From a virus: a stretch of DNA of 64,000 bases. Shown piece after piece: positions 7,801 through 56,400 of the stretch. The stretch spans positions 11,324-75,323 of the IMG/VR virus record IMGVR_UViG_3300023313_000006; one strand, 5' to 3'. Position numbers and translations under genes: made by a program. The notes beneath the pieces were generated by a model. That model did no database searches and was not told the DNA's origin. It saw only the letters and a list, made by a program, of their open reading frames with translations. Position 1 is the first letter of the stretch; the number at the start of each line of letters is the position of its first letter.

Positions 7801-8322
7801 ATGCCCGGTTTCACACCATCAAACGCCGATATGGGAACGGTCAATGTTGGTGATGTGCTGAACGACACGATCACTTGGAGCAAGACCAATTTCCAACTAG
7901 ACGGATTTCGCATCGAAGCAAATGAATTTCCAACGTCACCAGATTTTTCGATTGTAGCGTCAACAACTGACGTTCAGATCAGCGGCATTGTGCCGAACCC
8001 GTGGGGTTACATTTCAGCGCAATACACTGACCACAACGACACACTACACACGATGAATGACATAATCGATCCAATCGTCGATTTGCCCAACAATGACATA
8101 ATGCTACATTTGGTGAAGCTCGAATATGATTCAACACCAAGCCAAGTCTTTCATTTTACAGTTCATGCCGACTGGAGCGAGCTTGACCCAAACACAAACG
8201 CACCAAAAGTACCAGCGGTAACAGGAACAGACACACAGACCTATTTCTACACCGTGCTGAACAATTGGACGGGAAACAAAAACAATTTTGACACACTGAA
8301 AGCAACGGGAAGGATTAGATAG
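7801..8322 (+). CDS. Hypothetical virion protein between gp5 and PAAR
   Basis: Tightly packed ORF in the baseplate operon. Confidence 0.6.
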   Translation: MPGFTPSNADMGTVNVGDVLNDTITWSKTNFQLDGFRIEANEFPTSPDFSIVASTTDVQISGIVPNPWGYISAQYTDHNDTLHTMNDIIDPIVDLPNNDIMLHLVKLEYDSTPSQVFHFTVHADWSELDPNTNAPKVPAVTGTDTQTYFYTVLNNWTGNKNNFDTLKATGRIR

Positions 8323-8613
8323 ATGCCAGCGGTTCATCTAAAGGGGCAAAAGGGCAGTGGGCATGGTTGCTTTTCTCCACGACCGAACATTCAGGGTTCG
8401 CCGAACGTGTTTGTCAACAGCACGCCAGTTCACAGAGAAGGCGACGCATGGGATTCGCATGGATGCGGTGTTTGTATTCCTCATGCCGGCAGCTTATCAA
8501 AGGGTTCATCGACAGTGTTTGTTAATGGTTCAGGAATCGCTAGAATCGGCGATCCAGTTGATTGTGGTTCCGTCTGCGCAGAAGGTTCGTCGAATGTGTT
8601 TGCTGGCGGCTAG
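8323..8613 (+). CDS. PAAR spike-tip protein (gp5.4-like)
   Basis: GHGCF.PRP...GSPNVFVN, H...C.PH, ARIGDPVDCG. Confidence 0.95.
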   Translation: MPAVHLKGQKGSGHGCFSPRPNIQGSPNVFVNSTPVHREGDAWDSHGCGVCIPHAGSLSKGSSTVFVNGSGIARIGDPVDCGSVCAEGSSNVFAGG

Positions 8614-9011: not shown

Positions 9012-10768
9012 TGTCGGCATCGAATACTGTAGCAGAATTAGATTTTGCCAAGATCAAACAAAGTCTAATCGACACGTTCAAAACAAATCCAACATTCACT
9101 GACTACGATTTCAGTGGTTCAACTGTTTCAGCACTGCTCGATATGCTGGCTTATGTTACTCACTATCAGGGCGTATATGCCAATTTAGCATTCGCAGAAC
9201 GATTCATTGATACAGCACAACTACGCAACAGCATCGTTTCATTAGCAAAGGAATTGGGTTATTTTCCGGCGCAAGCAGCACCAGCGAAAGCGACGTTGAC
9301 ATTATCAATCGATGCTGCGAACGTTCCGGGCAATCCTAGCAGCATTATTTCAAATTCAAAGATCAATTTTGTTGGCGTTGACACCAACGACAACAATCAC
9401 GAATTTTGGTCGCAAGCAGACGTGGTGTTCAATCTAAACAATGGTGTCTATAGTGCCGATTTGACGCTGACACAAGGCACACCAGTCGAACAACGATTTG
9501 TATATACGAATGTTGGTCATAGAGCAGAGTTCATTCTTCCCAATTCAAACATCAATCTTGACACAATCGTCGTGAAAGTGAAAGATAATTCGTCTGTTCC
9601 TGATTCACAAGCGGTCACATGGAACAGATCACAAAACATTGGCAACAACACCAGCAGTTCATTGATTTGGTTTATTGAAGAAACAACTGACAATAAGCTA
9701 CGTTTGAGCTTCGGTGATGATGTGATCGGCAAAGCGCCGGCATTGAACAATGAAATCATTGTGACGTATGAAATCAGCGAAGGTAGCGCAGCAAACACAT
9801 CAAAAGGGTTTTCAATCACGTCTGCTAACGTCGCTGGTTATAGCCCCAATCTATTCACAATCAGCAATGAAGTTCAAGCACAAGGCGGTACTGACCCAGA
9901 ACCGATTGAATCAATCCGCTTGAATGCTCCGGGTGTCTATGCTTCACAACAACGAGCAGTGACGATAACCGACTATAGAGCATTGCTATTAAACAAGTTC
10001 CAATGGATCAAATCGATCAACGTCTGGGGCGGCGAAAACAATTCCGTTCCTCAATATGGACAAGTTTATATTTCTATTGTGCCGGATTTTGGGACGAAGA
10101 TGACACTGGCCGAACGAGATAACGTTTCTGCCTTTTTGAACACGGTGTCAATCGTCGGCACAGGCATTCACTTCGTCGATCCGTCAATTCTATATGTTGA
10201 CACAACGACAACAGCAAAATATAGCAGAGATTTGACTTCTGATTCGCACGTTCTAGTTGAGGCCGCTATTGACGCTGCTATCGATTCATATTTCACGACA
10301 ACAAGCGGACTGCTCAACCAAAGCATCAATTTCTCCAAACTGCTAGCAGCAATCGATGCTGCTCATATTGGCGTGACATCAAATATCACTGACCTGAATT
10401 TTCACATGGACATCATTCCTGACACGGTTCATTCAGCGGACGTTGTTCTGGACTTCACCAATGCTATTGTTGCCGGTTCGGTGATGACGAACACTTGGAC
10501 TTCACCAAACGGCGATTCGGTTTATATGAAAGATGACGGTAACGGCAACATTCATTATGTTGTTAATGGCGTTGAATTAAAGAATAGCGGCAACCAATAC
10601 AACGTCGATTATACCAACGGCATCATCACACTGAACGGATTTCTACCGAACATCGCGCCAGCTTCAACAATCACATTCAATGCTAAACCACAATCGAACG
10701 ATTTGGTTGGTGGGCGTTCAACAATCATTGAAATCGGCAACAAAAACACAACGGCAGTTCTAGCATGA
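9011..10768 (+). CDS. gp6: Baseplate wedge gp6
   Basis: ELDF..IK, FTDYDFSGS...LLD.LAY, FGDDVIGK, QQRAVT..DY, WGGENN. Confidence 0.95.
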   Translation: MSASNTVAELDFAKIKQSLIDTFKTNPTFTDYDFSGSTVSALLDMLAYVTHYQGVYANLAFAERFIDTAQLRNSIVSLAKELGYFPAQAAPAKATLTLSIDAANVPGNPSSIISNSKINFVGVDTNDNNHEFWSQADVVFNLNNGVYSADLTLTQGTPVEQRFVYTNVGHRAEFILPNSNINLDTIVVKVKDNSSVPDSQAVTWNRSQNIGNNTSSSLIWFIEETTDNKLRLSFGDDVIGKAPALNNEIIVTYEISEGSAANTSKGFSITSANVAGYSPNLFTISNEVQAQGGTDPEPIESIRLNAPGVYASQQRAVTITDYRALLLNKFQWIKSINVWGGENNSVPQYGQVYISIVPDFGTKMTLAERDNVSAFLNTVSIVGTGIHFVDPSILYVDTTTTAKYSRDLTSDSHVLVEAAIDAAIDSYFTTTSGLLNQSINFSKLLAAIDAAHIGVTSNITDLNFHMDIIPDTVHSADVVLDFTNAIVAGSVMTNTWTSPNGDSVYMKDDGNGNIHYVVNGVELKNSGNQYNVDYTNGIITLNGFLPNIAPASTITFNAKPQSNDLVGGRSTIIEIGNKNTTAVLA

Positions 10769-11922
10769 CACCAAAAAAGCTATCAATTTTCATAGATAGG
10801 TTTTTGCCTTCGCATTTAGTCGAAGAATATCCATACTTGAGAGATTTCATGTATGGATATTTACAGTTTTTGGAAAGAGACAACGGACCCTATGACATCA
10901 TAGCAAAATTGCTGGTTGATGAAAATATCAGCAACTCGGTTGCTCTATATCTCGATTCATTCCAGCAAAAATACACGCCATTCATGCCGAAGGTGAACGT
11001 TGCTGATATTGAGCTAATTGTTCAGCAGATTCGCGCCTTCTACAACAAAAAAGGAACCGAGGACTCTTTCCGTTGGTTGTTCAGGGCTTATTATGGGCAA
11101 GAAATCGATTTCTATTACCCAAGAAACGACATTCTTCGGGCTAGCGACGGCGATTGGTATGCTCCGATCAAATTGGTTTTGGTTGACCAGAATGGAACGT
11201 TGATTGCCGACAAGACAAAATATGTTGGCACAACTTTCGTGGGCAAAACTTCTGGTGACAGATCGAAAGTTGAAAAAATAGAAGTCGGAATCGATGCTAC
11301 TACTGGAACGAGCATCACTTATGCTACAGTCATTGGTTCGTATGGACTGCTACAGCAGGGCGAGCAAATCGTTTGTCTTGAATATCCAACCGATCAAATT
11401 TTCATTCGTGATGCGGCAAATTCGATCATAGAGGTCGGCGGGAAGTGGCGAAATACCAACGGCCACATATCATCAAACAAAATGATTCAAGACAATTACT
11501 ACTATCAGGATTTGTCTTATGAGATCACGGTCGGTATTTCGCCCGACACGTTTTTACTTTTAGCAAATAACGCAATTCATCCGGCGGGACGCAAACTATT
11601 CGCTAAAGTTTACATTAAAAATTCGGCACAAGACACCAACAATGTTGTAGCACTAAGCGAACGACTTTTGTCTATCTACAATAAATACACCATAAGCGCG
11701 TTGATTGGATTGAACGACGTTATTATTAGTGCTGTTCCGACAACACCGTCAATCATGTATTTTTCAAATGTGTTCAACACCACGCCAAACACAATTTACT
11801 TGAACGACAACACGATCAACTTGAACAACGGCAACACATTTTTGAACAACACAACTTATGTTAGTGGCGTTAGTTGGTCGAACCAAACGCAGTTGTTTTC
11901 TGACAACGCATACGTTAGATAA
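10765..11922 (+). CDS. gp7: Baseplate wedge gp7-like (short)
   Basis: FYNKKGTEDSF..LFR, ILRASDGDW, IQDNYYYQDLSY, HPAG. Confidence 0.8.
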   Translation: MTPKKLSIFIDRFLPSHLVEEYPYLRDFMYGYLQFLERDNGPYDIIAKLLVDENISNSVALYLDSFQQKYTPFMPKVNVADIELIVQQIRAFYNKKGTEDSFRWLFRAYYGQEIDFYYPRNDILRASDGDWYAPIKLVLVDQNGTLIADKTKYVGTTFVGKTSGDRSKVEKIEVGIDATTGTSITYATVIGSYGLLQQGEQIVCLEYPTDQIFIRDAANSIIEVGGKWRNTNGHISSNKMIQDNYYYQDLSYEITVGISPDTFLLLANNAIHPAGRKLFAKVYIKNSAQDTNNVVALSERLLSIYNKYTISALIGLNDVIISAVPTTPSIMYFSNVFNTTPNTIYLNDNTINLNNGNTFLNNTTYVSGVSWSNQTQLFSDNAYVR

Positions 11923-48751: not shown

Positions 48752-50233
48752 GTGTACACCCAAGAACTGAAAGATTTTTGCTTCGATACAAAAGACAAAT
48801 CAACAAACACGCTACATCAAAACAAGCGAATGATGTCACTTTTGCTTTCAGAAACTTCGTTCTTGAATCACCACAACCCAACATTGAGAGTTAGACGTGA
48901 TTTTGTTGTAAAAAATTCAAAATCAATCCCTAGTTGTTCATTTTGCGGCAACGAAACAGTGATGACGACAAGAAACGACAAATTCAAAAAATACTGTTCA
49001 TTAGATTGTGAAAGAAAAGCGAAAACGAAAACATGCGACAAAATCTTTGACAAGGAATGGTTGATCTATCAAAGAACAGAACTCAAAAAATCGAAAGATG
49101 ATTTGTCCAGAGAATTAAACGTTTCGTACAAAACAATCGACGAAGCATTGTCTAATTTTGACATCAACGACAACATTTGCTTAGTTGACAAAAGAATTCG
49201 TACTATTTTGACAAACAAAAAACGATTAGCAAGATTCTACAACAAGTTTTCGACGCACGAAATAGCAGACTTGTTTGGTGTGTCCGTTGGAACAGTCATC
49301 AAGCATTTGAAAAAACATGAAATCGAAATCAAACCACCGAATTATTGGCACAAAAGTTTCAAGAAACGAAGCAAAGGCGAAAAAGAATTGTTTGATTTCG
49401 TTAATTCTTTGACAAAAGCAAAGCATTCGGATAGAACGGTTTTGAATGGCAAAGAACTGGATGTCTATGTGCCATCGCTCGGTGTCGCATTTGAATTTAA
49501 TGGCATCTACTATCATTCAGAACGATTCATCGACAAAAACAGTCACTATGAAAAAACAAAGCAATGTCAGGAAAAAGGTGTGACGCTATATCACATTTGG
49601 GAAGATGATTGGACGAACAAACAAGCCATCTGGAAGTCGAGAATCAGATCAATTTTGGGGAAAACAGAACGAAAAATCTATGCTAGAGATTGTCGGGTCA
49701 AAGATATTTCATCGAAAGAGAAAAACGATTTTCTTGAACGAACCCATTTACAAGGGCGAGATTTCGCCAAGCACAAGTTGGGATTGTTCCACAATGACAA
49801 ATTGGTGGCCGTGATGACATTCAGCAAAGATCGATCGAACAAGAACGATCATGTTCTTTCAAGATTTTCATGCGAATTGAACGCGACCGTTGTTGGTGGG
49901 TTCTCGAAATTGCTAGCACACTTCAAGCGAAACAACGAAGGCAACATTGTCACCTATGCCGATTTGTCATATACGGACGGCAACGTTTACATTAAAAACG
50001 GATTTGTTGAATCCAAGCTCTACAAAAGCAATTACTGGTATGTGATCGATTCGAAGCGCGCCCACAAATCAAATTTCTCAAAATCAGCAATGAAAAAGAG
50101 ATTTCCAAATTTCGATTTCAAATCAAATACAGAAACCGAAATGGCACACGAGTTGGGTTATTTTAGACTATTCGGTGCTGGAATGAAAACGTTTTCTCTA
50201 AATAATCATCATGCTAGACTTTCTGAAATCTAA
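48752..50233 (+). CDS. Hef-like free-standing endonuclease (HTH/Zn, Vsr/PD-(D/E)XK-like, GNAT-like C-terminus)
   Basis: SKGEKELF, ELDVYVP...AFEFNGIYYH, HIWEDDW, KIYAR.C, HLQG, GGFSKLL, TYAD; candidate promoter at 48697-48724. Confidence 0.75.
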   Translation: MYTQELKDFCFDTKDKSTNTLHQNKRMMSLLLSETSFLNHHNPTLRVRRDFVVKNSKSIPSCSFCGNETVMTTRNDKFKKYCSLDCERKAKTKTCDKIFDKEWLIYQRTELKKSKDDLSRELNVSYKTIDEALSNFDINDNICLVDKRIRTILTNKKRLARFYNKFSTHEIADLFGVSVGTVIKHLKKHEIEIKPPNYWHKSFKKRSKGEKELFDFVNSLTKAKHSDRTVLNGKELDVYVPSLGVAFEFNGIYYHSERFIDKNSHYEKTKQCQEKGVTLYHIWEDDWTNKQAIWKSRIRSILGKTERKIYARDCRVKDISSKEKNDFLERTHLQGRDFAKHKLGLFHNDKLVAVMTFSKDRSNKNDHVLSRFSCELNATVVGGFSKLLAHFKRNNEGNIVTYADLSYTDGNVYIKNGFVESKLYKSNYWYVIDSKRAHKSNFSKSAMKKRFPNFDFKSNTETEMAHELGYFRLFGAGMKTFSLNNHHARLSEI

Positions 50234-52531: not shown

Positions 52532-52539
52532 GCAAAAAA

Positions 52540-53013
52540 TCAAACGCTCACTGAAAAGTCTTGATAGTAAAATGTGACCGATGCGGTCAACACACGATTG
52601 TCGCCGACCGATGTGAATTGAACTTCGCTCAACACCGACGGGAACATTCCAACAAAAACGAATGTCATCAGCGGCGTCGAATTGTTCGATAGAATCGTCA
52701 ATGAACCATCGCTCAACAAATCGCGTCGATTAGCAGCGCCAGCATTCCCCGTTCCCATGCTTCGCATCCAGTTGAAGATGTCAAGATATGATTTCAAATC
52801 TTCGTCGATGGCGAAAGTGACGATCATTGGGTCGAACGTCATCTTTTCGGACGGGAATGGAATGTCATTGAATGTGTTGGGTTGAACAACAGCACCAACA
52901 CTAACCGTTGGCAGTGTCGCCTCAATGATTTGAAAATTGAAGTGCGGACTTTTCTCGATGGTGAGAAGATAGTTTGACGAATAAGCGTCGTTGGTTGTGA
53001 ATGTTGTAGCCAT
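52540..53013 (-). CDS. gp3: Tail completion / tube terminator gp3
   Basis: P.FNF......LP, FDP..V.F.IDEDL..Y..I..WM, SD..L.IL.N, FP..L. Confidence 0.9.
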   Translation of the reverse strand: MATTFTTNDAYSSNYLLTIEKSPHFNFQIIEATLPTVSVGAVVQPNTFNDIPFPSEKMTFDPMIVTFAIDEDLKSYLDIFNWMRSMGTGNAGAANRRDLLSDGSLTILSNNSTPLMTFVFVGMFPSVLSEVQFTSVGDNRVLTASVTFYYQDFSVSV

Positions 53014-53051
53014 GATTCTATTTAGTTGGTTGACGAGAGACTTAGAAGCCG

Positions 53052-53129
53052 TAAAATCGATTATATGGCGTTTTAGATTGTCTGAAAGGGGTAAGCATAT
53101 CCAACAACGTTAAAATGAATCCTAGCGCA
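53052..53129. repeat. 78-bp three-box element, copy 1
   Basis: Ungapped match to 54775-54852. Confidence 0.85.
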
Positions 53130-53139
53130 AATATGGACG

Positions 53140-53610
53140 TTTGACGACGATGACGGAACGATGAAACGAGATCGATTGAATGGTTGAACGAGAAAATTGA
53201 TTTGAATGGTTGGAAGAAGATCAGCGATGGAATGGCGAAAAGAAAATCGATTGAATGATGACGATTGCTGATCGTTGATTGTTGAATGAAAGATGAGTTG
53301 AAGAAGAACATTGAATGAAATCGATTTGAAGAAGATAATTGAATGATGACCAAAAAGAGAATTGATTGCTGATCGTTGATTGTTGAATGAAAGATGAGTT
53401 GAAGAAGATCGATTGAATGATGTGATTGTTGTCTATCGATAATCAATTCAGTTAGCTATTGCTGTAATCTATTCAGTTAGCTATTGCTGTAATCATCTAT
53501 TCAATCAATGCTGTAATCATCTATTCAGTTATCTGTAGTTGTTCTTGTTGTTATCTGTTGTTCTATCTGTTGTCTATTTCTCTTTCTTTTTCCCATAATC
53601 ATCTTTAATC
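53140..53610. repeat. Strand-skewed low-complexity repeat tract, putative replication origin
   Basis: 45-bp perfect direct repeat at 53263-53307 and 53364-53408; 24-bp repeat at 53446-53469 and 53471-53494; purine-to-pyrimidine switch near 53440. Confidence 0.65.
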
Positions 53611-53634
53611 ATTTCAAAATGCATGCAGGCTGCC

Positions 53635-53744
53635 GCCTGCGGAGGTCGGAGAACGTCAACTACTCACGAAGCACTGAAAAACAAGGGACAAAAAAGCCCC
53701 TTTTCAGCCCGTGAGTGGTGAACATTCTCCGACCTCCGCAGGCG
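53635..53744. other. Long GC-rich hairpin
   Basis: CGCCTGCGGAGGTCGGAGAA pairs with TTCTCCGACCTCCGCAGGCG (20 bp perfect), with further internal stems. Confidence 0.9.
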
Positions 53745-54583
53745 CTCTTGGTAAATTAACCAATAGAACAAAAAATGTTCCGTCTGCGTTTAGGCCGTGT
53801 TCACGCCATCGTATGCTTTTCAAGAGCAGGGCATACGATTAGAGAGATTCCTTACCATCCGCTGCTGTCGGACGGGATACCACCCCGTTCTCTCTACCCT
53901 ATTTGCATGTTGCCAACAAATCGACGAGCGATTTGCGGTGTACGATAGTAATGGTGTTGTCCAATCACCATGAAGGTCAGATCGATTTCCGCCCCAACCT
54001 TCTTTTCCTACCTAAGCGATGACACCATAGCAAAACAGGACGTGTATTTTTCGAGTTGCTATTGTTTTACAGTGTCTCGCCGTTGCCGAACACGCGGCCA
54101 TCGTTTCGTGACGTGATTCTATGCTATTCGTTTTCGTCTAATGAAGCTATTTGTCGTTTCTTGCTTTTCGTGCCTATGGTCTATTGCGACTCTTTGCGGC
54201 TAATTTCGTTGCTAATTTTTTTGACACTTCATTCTTGCGACTATTTTCATGCTGTCACTTTGTTGTCACTAACGACGTTACAACAATTCAATAAAGCCGT
54301 ACTGGGGTTGCCGCCTTTGGTATCGCACTTCCGTTAAGCGGCTTGCCAATTCTTCGGGGGACGTAGTGCTATCAAAACCCTGATTGCGGAATGTGTCCAT
54401 TCAGCATGATCGTTCACTTCATGCCCAAACGCAATCCTGCTTCCGAAGTTTATGCTTCAACAATCATCGAATCAACTTTGCCCAACAATCCATCTTAGAT
54501 GCGCTCTTGCTGGCACGCCGTATCATCTATGTTTCCACAAAGGCTCGAAATTCAAATGAACACCAAATGAATAACACGCCTTG
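53635..54583 (-). ncRNA. Putative large structured non-coding RNA (family not recognised)
   Basis: No credible ORF; downstream of two perfect promoters; more than 12 helices including long-range closures; GCAA tetraloops on the minus strand. The 3' end is uncertain. Confidence 0.65.
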
Positions 54584-54589
54584 TAGCGA

Positions 54590-54618
54590 ATTATAGCACA
54601 AAGAAAATACCGTGTCAA
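54590..54618 (-). promoter_or_regulatory. Perfect sigma70 promoter P1 (leftward)
   Basis: TTGACA (54618-54613), 17 nt, TATAAT (54595-54590). Confidence 0.9.
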
Positions 54619-54727
54619 GCACTTTTTTTCGATGCGCTAAAAATCAGCTACAGTTCTACTTAGGTTTTTTTTGAAATCAAATTCAACCCCTGATTTCAAA
54701 ATCGTGTCAAATTGACACACGCGACAA

Positions 54728-54756
54728 ATTATAGCGCGGTTGATTCCTCTTGTCAA
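54728..54756 (-). promoter_or_regulatory. Perfect sigma70 promoter P2 (leftward)
   Basis: TTGACA (54756-54751), 17 nt, TATAAT (54733-54728); shares about 30 bp of upstream sequence with P1. Confidence 0.9.
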
Positions 54757-54774
54757 GCACTTTTTTCGACGCGC

Positions 54775-54852
54775 TAAAATCGATTCTATGGCGTTTTAAT
54801 TTCTTGGCAGTGGGTAGGCATAGGCAAAGCCATTAAAATCAATTCTAGCGCA
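54775..54852. repeat. 78-bp three-box element, copy 2
   Basis: Ungapped match to 53052-53129. Confidence 0.85.
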
Positions 54853-54888
54853 CTTTTCGGCACCAGAACAGCATGAAAAAGATTTTGC

Positions 54889-54917
54889 TTGACAAATTCA
54901 ACCCGAGCATATATAAT
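54889..54917 (+). promoter_or_regulatory. Perfect sigma70 promoter for dda (leaderless)
   Basis: TTGACA-17 nt-TATAAT, with ATG at 54925. Confidence 0.9.
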
Positions 54918-54924
54918 TCTCGCC

Positions 54925-56400
54925 ATGAAAAAAGAAATCATCATCACGCCGCTCAATGGCGAAGCAGTGCGCAAAGCAAAACAGCATATCGGCAAGACGT
55001 TTGATCGTTTTGATTTTGTCTGTCGTCCCGGTTTCATTGATATTGACGGTATCGGTAGGTGTAAGTGGAACGCACCGGCCAATGAAATCAGTAACATCAA
55101 TTCGGTTCGTTTGGTCACCAAAAACAATCGATTCGTTTTGTTGATCTCCGCCGAATCGAACGACAAGAAAATCAACAACGAAAAATACTCACCACCAAAA
55201 CCGACGAAGGAACAACAAGCTGTCATTGATTCTGTTTGCGATTTGGTTGCTGTCGGGCAGCATTGTTGTATCGATGCTCCCGCTGGTACGGGTAAAACAT
55301 TCATGCTTCGTTTTTTGATTAACGCGATTGAAGGCAAAGCCAATCGCAGAGTTAGTGTTTGTTCGACCACACACAAATCAATAGCAGTCATCGAAAAAAA
55401 CATTGGTTTCAAAGACGTTTTCACCATTCATTCATTGCTTGGCGTGAAGCCCGTCATTGATTATGAAACGGGAAAAGAAAAATATACGATTGACACATCG
55501 ATACCCGCGAAGATTCGTGCTGGCGAAGTTGTTATTTGTGATGAATCATCGATGATTAACGCTGAATTGCTTGAATTGATCGTCGAATGTATCAACGAGT
55601 TGAAGTGCGTTTTTGTTTTCATTGGTGATTCAAAGCAGTTGCCGCCAGTGAATGAAGATATTGCTATGGCTCTGAACATCCCGAACAAATTTACTTTGTC
55701 AAAGATTGTTCGTCACGATAATTCGATTGTTGACGCGTCTGTTTACATGCGAGAATGTATTGATAGTGGTGTCGTTCCATCGGTCGAAGTCTTTGAACAA
55801 TATGAAGATATTGAAATCATCCGCGACGAACGAAAATTCAATTCACTGTTCTTTGACATGGTTGAACATCAAAAATCGGTCTTGTTTGTTGCTTGGACGA
55901 ACAGACGTGTCGATGCTCATGCTCGCGCGACGAGAAAGCATTTGGGTTATCCAGAAGATAATTTTGTCCGTGGTGAAGTGATTGTCTTGAATGCTCCGGT
56001 TGTTGTTGGTGGCAATATCAAAGCACAAAACAATTCGGTTCACGTCATCAAGAATGTCAAAGACGTTGTTATCGAAGATGTGCCAATGAAAGCGGTGACG
56101 ACTTATGAAGGATTGAAATTCAACACCGCTGTTGACAACACGCTGATCGAAAGCAAATTGTCTAGTTTGGCGAATGCTGCTAGAAAGAATCCGATCACTG
56201 GATGGAAGAAATACTACCGATTCAAAGAAACGTGCGTGCCTATATCATTTCACCATTCGTGTACCGTTCATAAATCGCAAGGTTCGACGGTCGAAAGCGT
56301 TTTTGTTGACTATAACAATATAGCACAAGCCGACATTGCTTCAAAGTTGCTCTATGTAGCAATCACGCGCGCGTCAAAGCGAGTTTACATTCTTGCTTGA
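54925..56400 (+). CDS. dda: Dda/RecD-like SF1B helicase
   Basis: APAGTGKT, TIHSLL, DESSM, GD.KQLPPV, TVHKSQGST, LYVAITRA. The track's start at 54889 is the -35 box. Confidence 0.9.
   Translation: MKKEIIITPLNGEAVRKAKQHIGKTFDRFDFVCRPGFIDIDGIGRCKWNAPANEISNINSVRLVTKNNRFVLLISAESNDKKINNEKYSPPKPTKEQQAVIDSVCDLVAVGQHCCIDAPAGTGKTFMLRFLINAIEGKANRRVSVCSTTHKSIAVIEKNIGFKDVFTIHSLLGVKPVIDYETGKEKYTIDTSIPAKIRAGEVVICDESSMINAELLELIVECINELKCVFVFIGDSKQLPPVNEDIAMALNIPNKFTLSKIVRHDNSIVDASVYMRECIDSGVVPSVEVFEQYEDIEIIRDERKFNSLFFDMVEHQKSVLFVAWTNRRVDAHARATRKHLGYPEDNFVRGEVIVLNAPVVVGGNIKAQNNSVHVIKNVKDVVIEDVPMKAVTTYEGLKFNTAVDNTLIESKLSSLANAARKNPITGWKKYYRFKETCVPISFHHSCTVHKSQGSTVESVFVDYNNIAQADIASKLLYVAITRASKRVYILA

Follow-up and report, generated by a model that had tools for sequence, protein, structure and literature searches.

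What is the function of the one large gap between genes, free of open reading frames (ORFs), in the DNA of an uncultured T4-like phage? The gap spans positions 53014-54924 of a stretch of 64,000 nucleotides (nt), here called the window, which corresponds to positions 11,324 to 75,323 of IMG/VR record IMGVR_UViG_3300023313_000006. The record is a 75.3-kb virus contig from a microbial-mat metagenome and is estimated to be 42% complete; positions given here are those of the window, unless they are marked as genome positions or carry the label of another contig. A preliminary description of the sequence had proposed that the gap is a self-contained non-coding module acting as an RNA-primed replication origin. 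The first half of that proposal stands, as the gap has the marks of a dedicated non-coding unit with early promoters and a counterpart in a related phage; no support was found for the second half, the priming of replication. The gap is most likely the gene for an early non-coding RNA of ~0.9-1.1 kb, read from the minus strand. Its most informative feature, missed in the preliminary description, is a copy of the leader element of gene 32, whose product gp32 is the phage single-stranded DNA-binding protein (SSB). We tentatively favor a role of the RNA as a decoy or platform for the factor that binds this leader, presumably gp32.

The gene 32 leader and its copy in the gap

Repeats aside, the gap has a single match elsewhere in the genome, a stretch of 35-38 nt that is the gene 32 leader. 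The true leader element lies in the 50-nt spacer between the genes for gp59 (helicase loader) and gp32 (phrog_224 SSB; genome positions 10157-11017), where it ends 22 nt before the ATG. The gap copy has the orientation in which the gap's two promoters, P1 and P2, would be transcribed (minus strand). It consists of UAGCC, an inner hairpin G(U)C-GCAAUA-G(A)C, and AUAGGC, and it has neither a Shine-Dalgarno sequence nor an AUG. The copy and the other features of the predicted RNA and its flanks are given here in the order of transcription.

54728-54756, minus strand: early promoter P1, TTGACA-17-TATAAT, 12 of 12 consensus positions
54590-54618, minus strand: early promoter P2, TTGACA-17-TATAAT, 12 of 12 consensus positions, with a TG extended -10
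54482-54513, minus strand: 5' hairpin H2, a 7-base-pair (bp) outer stem around the near-invariant 20-mer AGAGCGCAUCU(A/U)AGAUGGAU
54104-54263, minus strand: A-rich platform, 45-50% A, rich in (A/U)UAG motifs and less paired than the rest of the RNA
54172-54202, minus strand: leader stem-loop copy, 89% identical to the phage's own gp59-gp32 leader at genome positions 10103-10135
53634-53744, minus strand: long terminal hairpin with 35-nt arms, whose counterpart in the related contig L019 is the long inverted repeat at 879-981
53528-53600, minus strand: purine-rich tract GGGAAAAAGAAAGAGAAAUAGACAACAG..., directly after the hairpin, with an AT skew of -0.33 on the plus strand

In this clade, gene 32 leaders have in common a two-tier stem-loop made up of UAGCC, a variable GC-rich inner hairpin, and A(U/A)AGGC. 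The inner stem, GCC/GGC in the leader, is GUC/GAC in the gap copy, which is a compensatory change. RNAfold, run on three leaders and on both RNA copies (that of the gap and that of L019), predicts the two-tier fold independently for each. A descriptor of the fold, run over both strands of 1.13 Mb, returns six matches, of which five are gene 32 leaders (three) or the big RNAs (two) and the sixth is a stray.

The second RNA copy came to light through L068, a contig that was retrieved among the relatives' gene 32 loci; it is from the metagenome of L019 and has the same degree of relatedness to the phage described here. Over 52 nt, the gene 32 leader in L068 matches the center of the L019 RNA (458-507; E = 8e-8); nothing else matches significantly between these contigs, and a 16-mer common to both occurs in those two contigs only, across all of IMG/VR. 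RNA copy and leader are 89% identical within each phage, against 66-70% identity of the element between phages; the RNA copy thus tracks the leader of the phage it belongs to. In each of the two RNAs, it sits within the most A-rich, least paired segment. In the gap, this platform has an unpaired probability of 0.49-0.71 versus ~0.3-0.5 elsewhere, and 54051-54250 on the minus strand is the genome's top 200-nt window for WTAG (10 occurrences, mean 1.5); the L019 equivalent of the platform is at 428-560.

Upstream regions of gene 32 in other loci (L067:2375-2500, L125, L069, and L070) have a small GC hairpin with flanking A(A/U)UAGC motifs. The stem of this hairpin covaries from phage to phage (GGCG/CGCC, GCGC/GCGC, GGG/CCC, and GCGG/CCGC), and as a leader element it is distinct from the T4 pseudoknot. 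A search of IMG/VR with the L067/L125 hairpin pattern gave gene 32 leaders plus chance matches and no second RNA.

Promoters, hairpins, and extent of the predicted RNA

The gap contains short ORFs only, none with a family match and none with a Pfam match, and it is the sole large gap of the 75-kb contig, every other gap being 292 nt or less; its G+C content is 47-51%, versus ~41% for the genome. Both of the perfect minus-strand promoters that had been reported are there, of the sigma70 type, and share a 35-nt upstream repeat. Together with the promoter of dda they belong to the phage's early class, CTTGACA-N16-18-TAnnnT; the window contains 10 sites of this class, versus 0.35 expected. An RNA initiated at P2 is predicted to have its 5' end near 54583. 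Just past the expected P1 start, at about +3 to +17, is a perfect palindrome, GTGTCAAATTGACAC (54704-54718), with TTGACA on both strands and an operator-like look; as a repeated operator it was rejected, being unique in the window.

The ~110-nt GC hairpin of the preliminary description is equally real: its arms (53634-53668 and 53710-53744) are 89% complementary. At 53683-53702 the hairpin tip resembles a terminator and has a U-run behind it, and a second small hairpin with UUUUG lies at 53625-53640; the 3' end of the RNA is therefore placed at ~53676-53615. The purine-rich run reported beyond the hairpin is evident from the minus-strand sequence itself.

The same description had credited the RNA with ~0.85 kb of dense secondary structure, which does not hold: the minimum free energy of the hairpin-free 834-nt body is no better than that of shuffled sequences (z-score +0.16). 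The full 991-nt transcript, hairpin included, has a z-score of -5.5, and the opposite strand one of -2.1. Near the 5' end, the 20-mer of H2 is identical at 19 of 20 positions to its counterpart in L019 and lies 60-77 nt past the expected start. When H2 is aligned with L019 241-272, 100% of the cells are paired; four of the seven outer pairs are compensatory and one is G-U/A-U, and sliding the partner columns by 1-3 as a control drops the pairing to 27-50%. The G-U pair is compatible with the minus strand only. A covariance model of H2 matched only this phage and L019 in 643 kb of related loci, and the core pattern was found in L019 plus chance matches within coding sequence in IMG/VR, and not at all in GTDB genomes.

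No catalogued RNA family matches the gap. Rfam 15 (including GOLLD, ROOL, group I and II introns, 6S RNA, and transfer-messenger RNA) gave no match at the gathering score, and only chance-level matches to microRNAs and small nucleolar RNAs at E up to 5; a scan for transfer RNAs (tRNAs) and transfer-messenger RNAs found none. Neither the gap nor the L019 RNA had a blastn match among 50,697 phage records. GOLLD and ROOL are large, ornate, phage-associated RNAs (PMC12286853). The predicted RNA resembles them in being phage-encoded, non-coding, and 0.6-1 kb in size, but differs in having no Rfam match even at the relaxed threshold, no tRNA neighbors, and no excess folding energy.

Downstream of the gap, gp3 does not require P1 or P2, since a late-promoter-like motif of its own precedes its ATG, and uvsY has an early promoter of its own at 52532>52503. 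Because both genes have their own promoters, the big RNA is not simply a gp3-uvsY leader. The (C)TAAATA motif is likewise found upstream of structural genes and, in L019 and in another related contig, L020, upstream of gp3; this phage does not use the T4 late promoter consensus TATAAATA.

53014-53030, minus strand: late-promoter-like CTAAATAG, 8-15 nt upstream of the gp3 ATG

The form CTAAATA(G/A) occurs at this distance before the gp3 start codon, without a Shine-Dalgarno sequence, in all three phages (53014-53030; L019:1125-1143; L020:6308-6324), which suggests that the late gp3 mRNA is nearly leaderless. On the plus strand, 53030-53057 holds a sigma70-like promoter with 10 of 12 matches (TTGACG-16-TAAAAT) that points rightward into a C-poor repeat field; a plus-strand transcript from it that converges on the long hairpin is possible.

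Genomic setting and related phages

The gap lies where it had been said to lie, between uvsW/uvsY (with gp3) and dda. To its left, on the minus strand, are gp3 (52540-53013), uvsY, and uvsW; to its right, on the plus strand, are the gene for a Dda-like helicase (54925-56400), gp55, and gp47. The reported divergence of transcription is true locally but not genome-wide: gp3-uvsY-uvsW is a three-gene minus-strand island, and nearly all other genes are on the plus strand. A gene for a 493-amino-acid HNH/homing-endonuclease-like protein (48752-50233, plus strand; phrog_3339) adjoins the uvsW end of the island.

By UvsW, the nearest cultured relatives are Methylophilales phage Melnitz and T4-like cyanophages, at ~44% identity at most. 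A UvsW search of IMG/VR gave three closer relatives (L018, L019, and L020; 58-60% identity). An alignment of the gp3-dda interval across relatives had been proposed as a check, and its outcome is divided: L019 has a syntenic, ORF-free RNA locus, and L020 has a mobile element instead.

L019 is 6.9 kb long, with a UvsW 60% and a gp3 47-48% identical to those of the phage described here, and 1143 nt upstream of its gp3 are ORF-free. This interval has a sigma70-type promoter directed toward gp3 (153-181) at a position equivalent to P2, the H2 and platform counterparts, the long inverted repeat, and a purine-rich segment after the hairpin (1000-1060); it has no direct repeats and no clear U-tract terminator past the hairpin. 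Overall similarity between the gap and L019 is undetectable by nhmmer and blastn, and only short colinear blocks are shared; an nhmmer search with the RNA of the gap against 1 Mb of fetched loci gave no match.

In L020 (IMGVR_UViG_3300003873_000004, a 95-kb contig), the dda-gp3 interval has no resemblance to the gap and is occupied by an IS607-type serine recombinase and TnpB. This insertion sequence in a lytic T4-like genome (L020:4490-6269) encodes a 189-amino-acid serine recombinase with an N-terminal helix-turn-helix and a 405-amino-acid TnpB with a zinc ribbon. As the RNA is absent from the available L020 sequence, it is not essential to the clade. The L018 contig ends 159 nt upstream of gp3, and the more distant gp3 loci L065 and L066 have a compact gene arrangement. 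Retrieval by Dda gave nothing in a scan of single proteins and only relatives of 34% identity or less in an alignment scan of metagenome contigs. A decayed gene was also considered as the source of the gap and rejected: the gap has no trace of the TnpA or TnpB of L020, of gp32, or of gp59, and it shares no peptide with L019. The lack of any gp32 or gp59 coding remnant means that the gap is not a decayed gene duplicate.

Repeats and dispersed elements at the DNA level

The 88-bp elements and the repeat field are DNA-level features separate from the RNA, and neither is present in L019.

54889-54917, plus strand: early promoter of dda, 12 of 12 consensus positions, divergent from P1
54765-54852, plus strand: 88-bp element, copy 2, flanked by P1 (minus strand) and, on the plus strand, the dda promoter
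53165-53541, no strand assigned: iteron-like repeat field, TTGAATGR boxes followed by related units in the opposite orientation
53042-53129, plus strand: 88-bp element, copy 1, with boxes AAATCGATTnnATG and TTAAAAT(C/G)AAT(T/C)CTAGC and no clear promoter
Genome positions 8301-8383, outside the window: 88-bp element, copy 3, between td and the dsbA promoter

Copies 1 and 2 had been described as twin 78-bp sites that flank the module. They are 88 nt long and 75% identical, and they belong to a dispersed element; copies 2 and 3 each have a CTTGACA promoter within ~40 nt. In the source metagenome (the sole DNA run that contains the contig is probably that of the source sample), the depth of the element is 3-4 times that of its surroundings, and its foreign flanks reach another CTTGACA promoter; the extra depth and loose ends indicate further copies, each with such a promoter behind it. 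Given the third copy and these probable further ones, the elements do not delimit a module. They have no conserved fold (consensus -3.9 kcal/mol, no covariation), and only copy 2 folds better than shuffled sequences (z-score -5.6, minus strand), copies 1 and 3 not. What they share is sequence boxes, which suggests that they are candidate protein-binding sites. In this the elements differ from PeSLs, the composite terminator/early-promoter cassettes of T4-like phages (PMC4122927, PMC2839356), since they have no conserved terminator-like stem-loop; they resemble PeSLs in being dispersed, intergenic, and directly upstream of early promoters (dda, dsbA, and the further metagenome copies) and in flanking a variable region. 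The middle of the element, GGTAGGCATAGGCAAAGCC (54790-54812), is similar to AATAGGCCATAGGCATAG (L002:1535-1555), the 3' portion of the gene 32 leader element; the likeness may be a coincidence or a further link between regulatory sequences.

Direct repeats are present as reported, in several families. The field has eight TTGAATGR boxes at 53176-53420, all on the plus strand and unevenly spaced by 26-49 nt, and includes a 45-nt exact duplication; 25-nt tandem units of opposite orientation, related to the TTGAATGR boxes, follow at 53440-53541, and strand composition flips near ATCGAT at ~53435. The field has AAATCGATTnnATG boxes in common with the 88-bp element. It is a candidate array of binding sites that is not conserved with the RNA.

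A candidate decoy for gp32

In T4, T2, and RB69, translation of gp32 is repressed by gp32 itself, which nucleates on a leader pseudoknot and spreads cooperatively over the unstructured, A/U-rich repeats that complete the operator (PMC3014915, PMC535899). By analogy with T4 and RB69, where gp32 nucleates on a fold and spreads over A/U-rich RNA, a decoy or loading platform is the most likely role of the RNA. Host RNA polymerase would transcribe the gap from the tandem promoters P1 and P2, with an end at or just past the long hairpin. The product would consist of the conserved 5' hairpin, a central, A-rich, weakly paired platform of ~160 nt, and the long 3' hairpin, and the platform would display the gene 32 leader stem-loop without a ribosome-binding site. 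The leader-binding factor, presumably gp32, would be titrated by the platform or loaded on it, and gp32 synthesis would be buffered or de-repressed early in infection. The promoters, the shared element, its change in step with the leader of each phage, and the covarying hairpin are observations; we infer the transcription, the gp32 binding, and the regulatory outcome.

The elements described here match the T4-type operator in part. Clade leaders likewise have a small fold and then unstructured A-rich RNA before the gene 32 ribosome-binding site. The T4-type location, in the 5' leader near the ribosome-binding site, is that of the element at genome positions 10103-10135 and not that of the gap copy, which is a mimic and not an operator. 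The fold is a nested two-tier stem-loop (outer GCC/GGC, inner GC hairpin) rather than an H-type pseudoknot, and the compensatory GUC/GAC change favors the nested pairing and disfavors the H-type. The repeats are (A/U)UAG and not UUAAA, and a second copy is found in a non-coding RNA that is not followed by gene 32; in both places, binding by gp32 is presumed.

CsrB and RsmZ are protein-titrating decoy RNAs for CsrA that mimic mRNA leader sites. Like them, the predicted RNA has the recognition element of a regulated leader within a non-coding RNA, with a long unpaired platform and repeated short motifs. Unlike them, it has one full stem-loop copy per RNA and not many, its presumed partner is a cooperative single-strand binding protein, and it is phage-encoded and early; there is no relation in sequence.

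Several points weigh against a decoy for gp32. No RNA run is among the sequencing runs listed as containing the contig, and a small metatranscriptome (4 million letters) from the same sample gave no matching reads. We know of no demonstration of gp32 autoregulation outside T4, T2, and RB69. Phage RB49 is without a T4-type gene 32 operator (PMC3014915). In the clade itself, the available 95 kb of L020 have no such RNA and no leader copy. The assignment of L019 and L068 to one phage draws on their common metagenome, their equal relatedness to the phage described here, and the unique 16-mer. Only two members of the RNA are known, so the covariation comes from a single pair, and since the body is no more stable than shuffled sequences, the term structured RNA applies to three local elements only. 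Rather than binding gp32, the leader element could serve RNase E processing or RNA stability, or be the site of another protein, and gene conversion could keep a short patch similar.

A more ambitious proposal is that the gap encodes a dedicated, highly transcribed, early long non-coding RNA whose operator mimic, displayed on a long single-stranded platform, titrates or stockpiles SSB, either to set the level of gp32 before replication or to deliver gp32 and gp59 to an adjacent RNA-primed origin; this seems rather doubtful.

Alternative explanations

The gap might have no RNA function of its own and be a hyperplastic spacer, in which recombination at PeSL-like elements has accumulated promoter duplicates, repeats, and a stray leader patch, with any transcripts as by-products. 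The variability of the interval agrees with this (the RNA in L019, IS607/TnpB in L020, and compact L065 and L066), as do the thermodynamically ordinary RNA body and the likeness of the dispersed promoter-side 88-bp elements to PeSLs (PMC4122927). Such a spacer would nonetheless not be expected to keep an ordered layout in two phages that are ~40-50% diverged at the protein level, to retain a 20-mer at 19 of 20 positions inside a covarying stem, or to hold in each phage an 89% copy of its own leader within flanks diverged beyond detection by nhmmer or blastn; the raised G+C content also speaks against it, and we regard it as unlikely. A further possibility, to which we give a low probability, is that the shared element is a signal for RNA processing or stability and that the long RNA is cut into defined, stable halves with another function, for example as a counter-defense RNA or a sponge for a host factor. 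The element lies mid-RNA in an A/U-rich single-stranded setting, the terminal stems of at least 20 bp could serve RNase III or 3' protection, and the T4 gene 32 leader is reported to be cleaved by RNase E into a stable species (work cited in PMC3014915). RNase E sites are of low specificity, however, so processing does not explain the close match of the element to each phage's own leader. It is barely credible that the RNA serves the gp3-uvsY-uvsW operon as a long 5' leader acting in cis. It does lie upstream of these genes in the same orientation, and the L019 hairpin has no clear U-tract; but gp3 has its late-promoter motif directly before the ATG in three phages, uvsY is served by its own early promoter, and ~600 nt of repeats and terminator-like hairpins intervene.

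There remains the origin of the preliminary description, which we consider quite unlikely. An early transcript would form a persistent RNA-DNA hybrid at the purine tract or the repeat field and prime the leading strand, as at T4 oriE and oriF or in ColE1. Such an origin, proposed by analogy alone, could coexist with a decoy function, and the mimic of the gene 32 leader could bring gp32 (and gp59) to it. ColE1-type RNA II is a folded pre-primer, a G-rich segment of which hybridizes at the origin and is cut by RNase H; in the gap there is only a purine-rich tract past the hairpin, and the RNA body has no excess folding energy. Still, both phages have a purine-rich RNA tract behind early promoters, clustered iteron-like repeats come with a flip in strand composition, and the locus has dda on one side and uvsY/uvsW on the other. 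The T4 origin oriE, located where transcription diverges, requires an early promoter and is markedly sensitive to dda mutation; it also contains 12-nt iterons, although these have no proven role even in T4 (PMC3016281). The gap has in common with oriE, oriF, and oriG an early promoter, clustered direct repeats, a local switch in direction, and dda and uvsW/uvsY as neighbors, so that the likeness, above all to oriE, is real but circumstantial (PMC3016281). The eight clustered boxes are irregularly spaced, and the array is absent from L019, as the RNA is from L020. P1 and P2 differ from the MotA-type promoters of oriF and oriG in having full sigma70 -35 and -10 boxes and no TGCTT box at the right spacing. 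They also have no A+T-rich unwinding element directly downstream: G+C content is 43-50% for ~900 nt past P2, and an AT-rich stretch (31-34% G+C) starts only past the hairpin. Terminator-like signals separate the RNA body from the purine tract, and no initiator gene was identified. The genome-wide GC skew that had been proposed as a check shows no cumulative switch at the gap and a strand bias that tracks gene orientation; with nearly every gene on the same strand, it is uninformative.

Implications for T4-like phages

A literature search found no description of a decoy RNA for gp32 and none of a non-coding leader copy in T4-like phages. Autoregulation through the gene 32 leader is a textbook case of translational control; the tuning of its set point during infection and its evolution outside the T-evens are poorly known, and further study has been called for (PMC3014915). 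A non-coding copy of the operator that keeps pace with the genuine leader in two diverged phages would amount to a decoy experiment made by nature. If a decoy for gp32 is indeed what the gap encodes, it would represent a new class of phage long non-coding RNA and the first viral decoy RNA directed against the autoregulatory loop of a replication protein.

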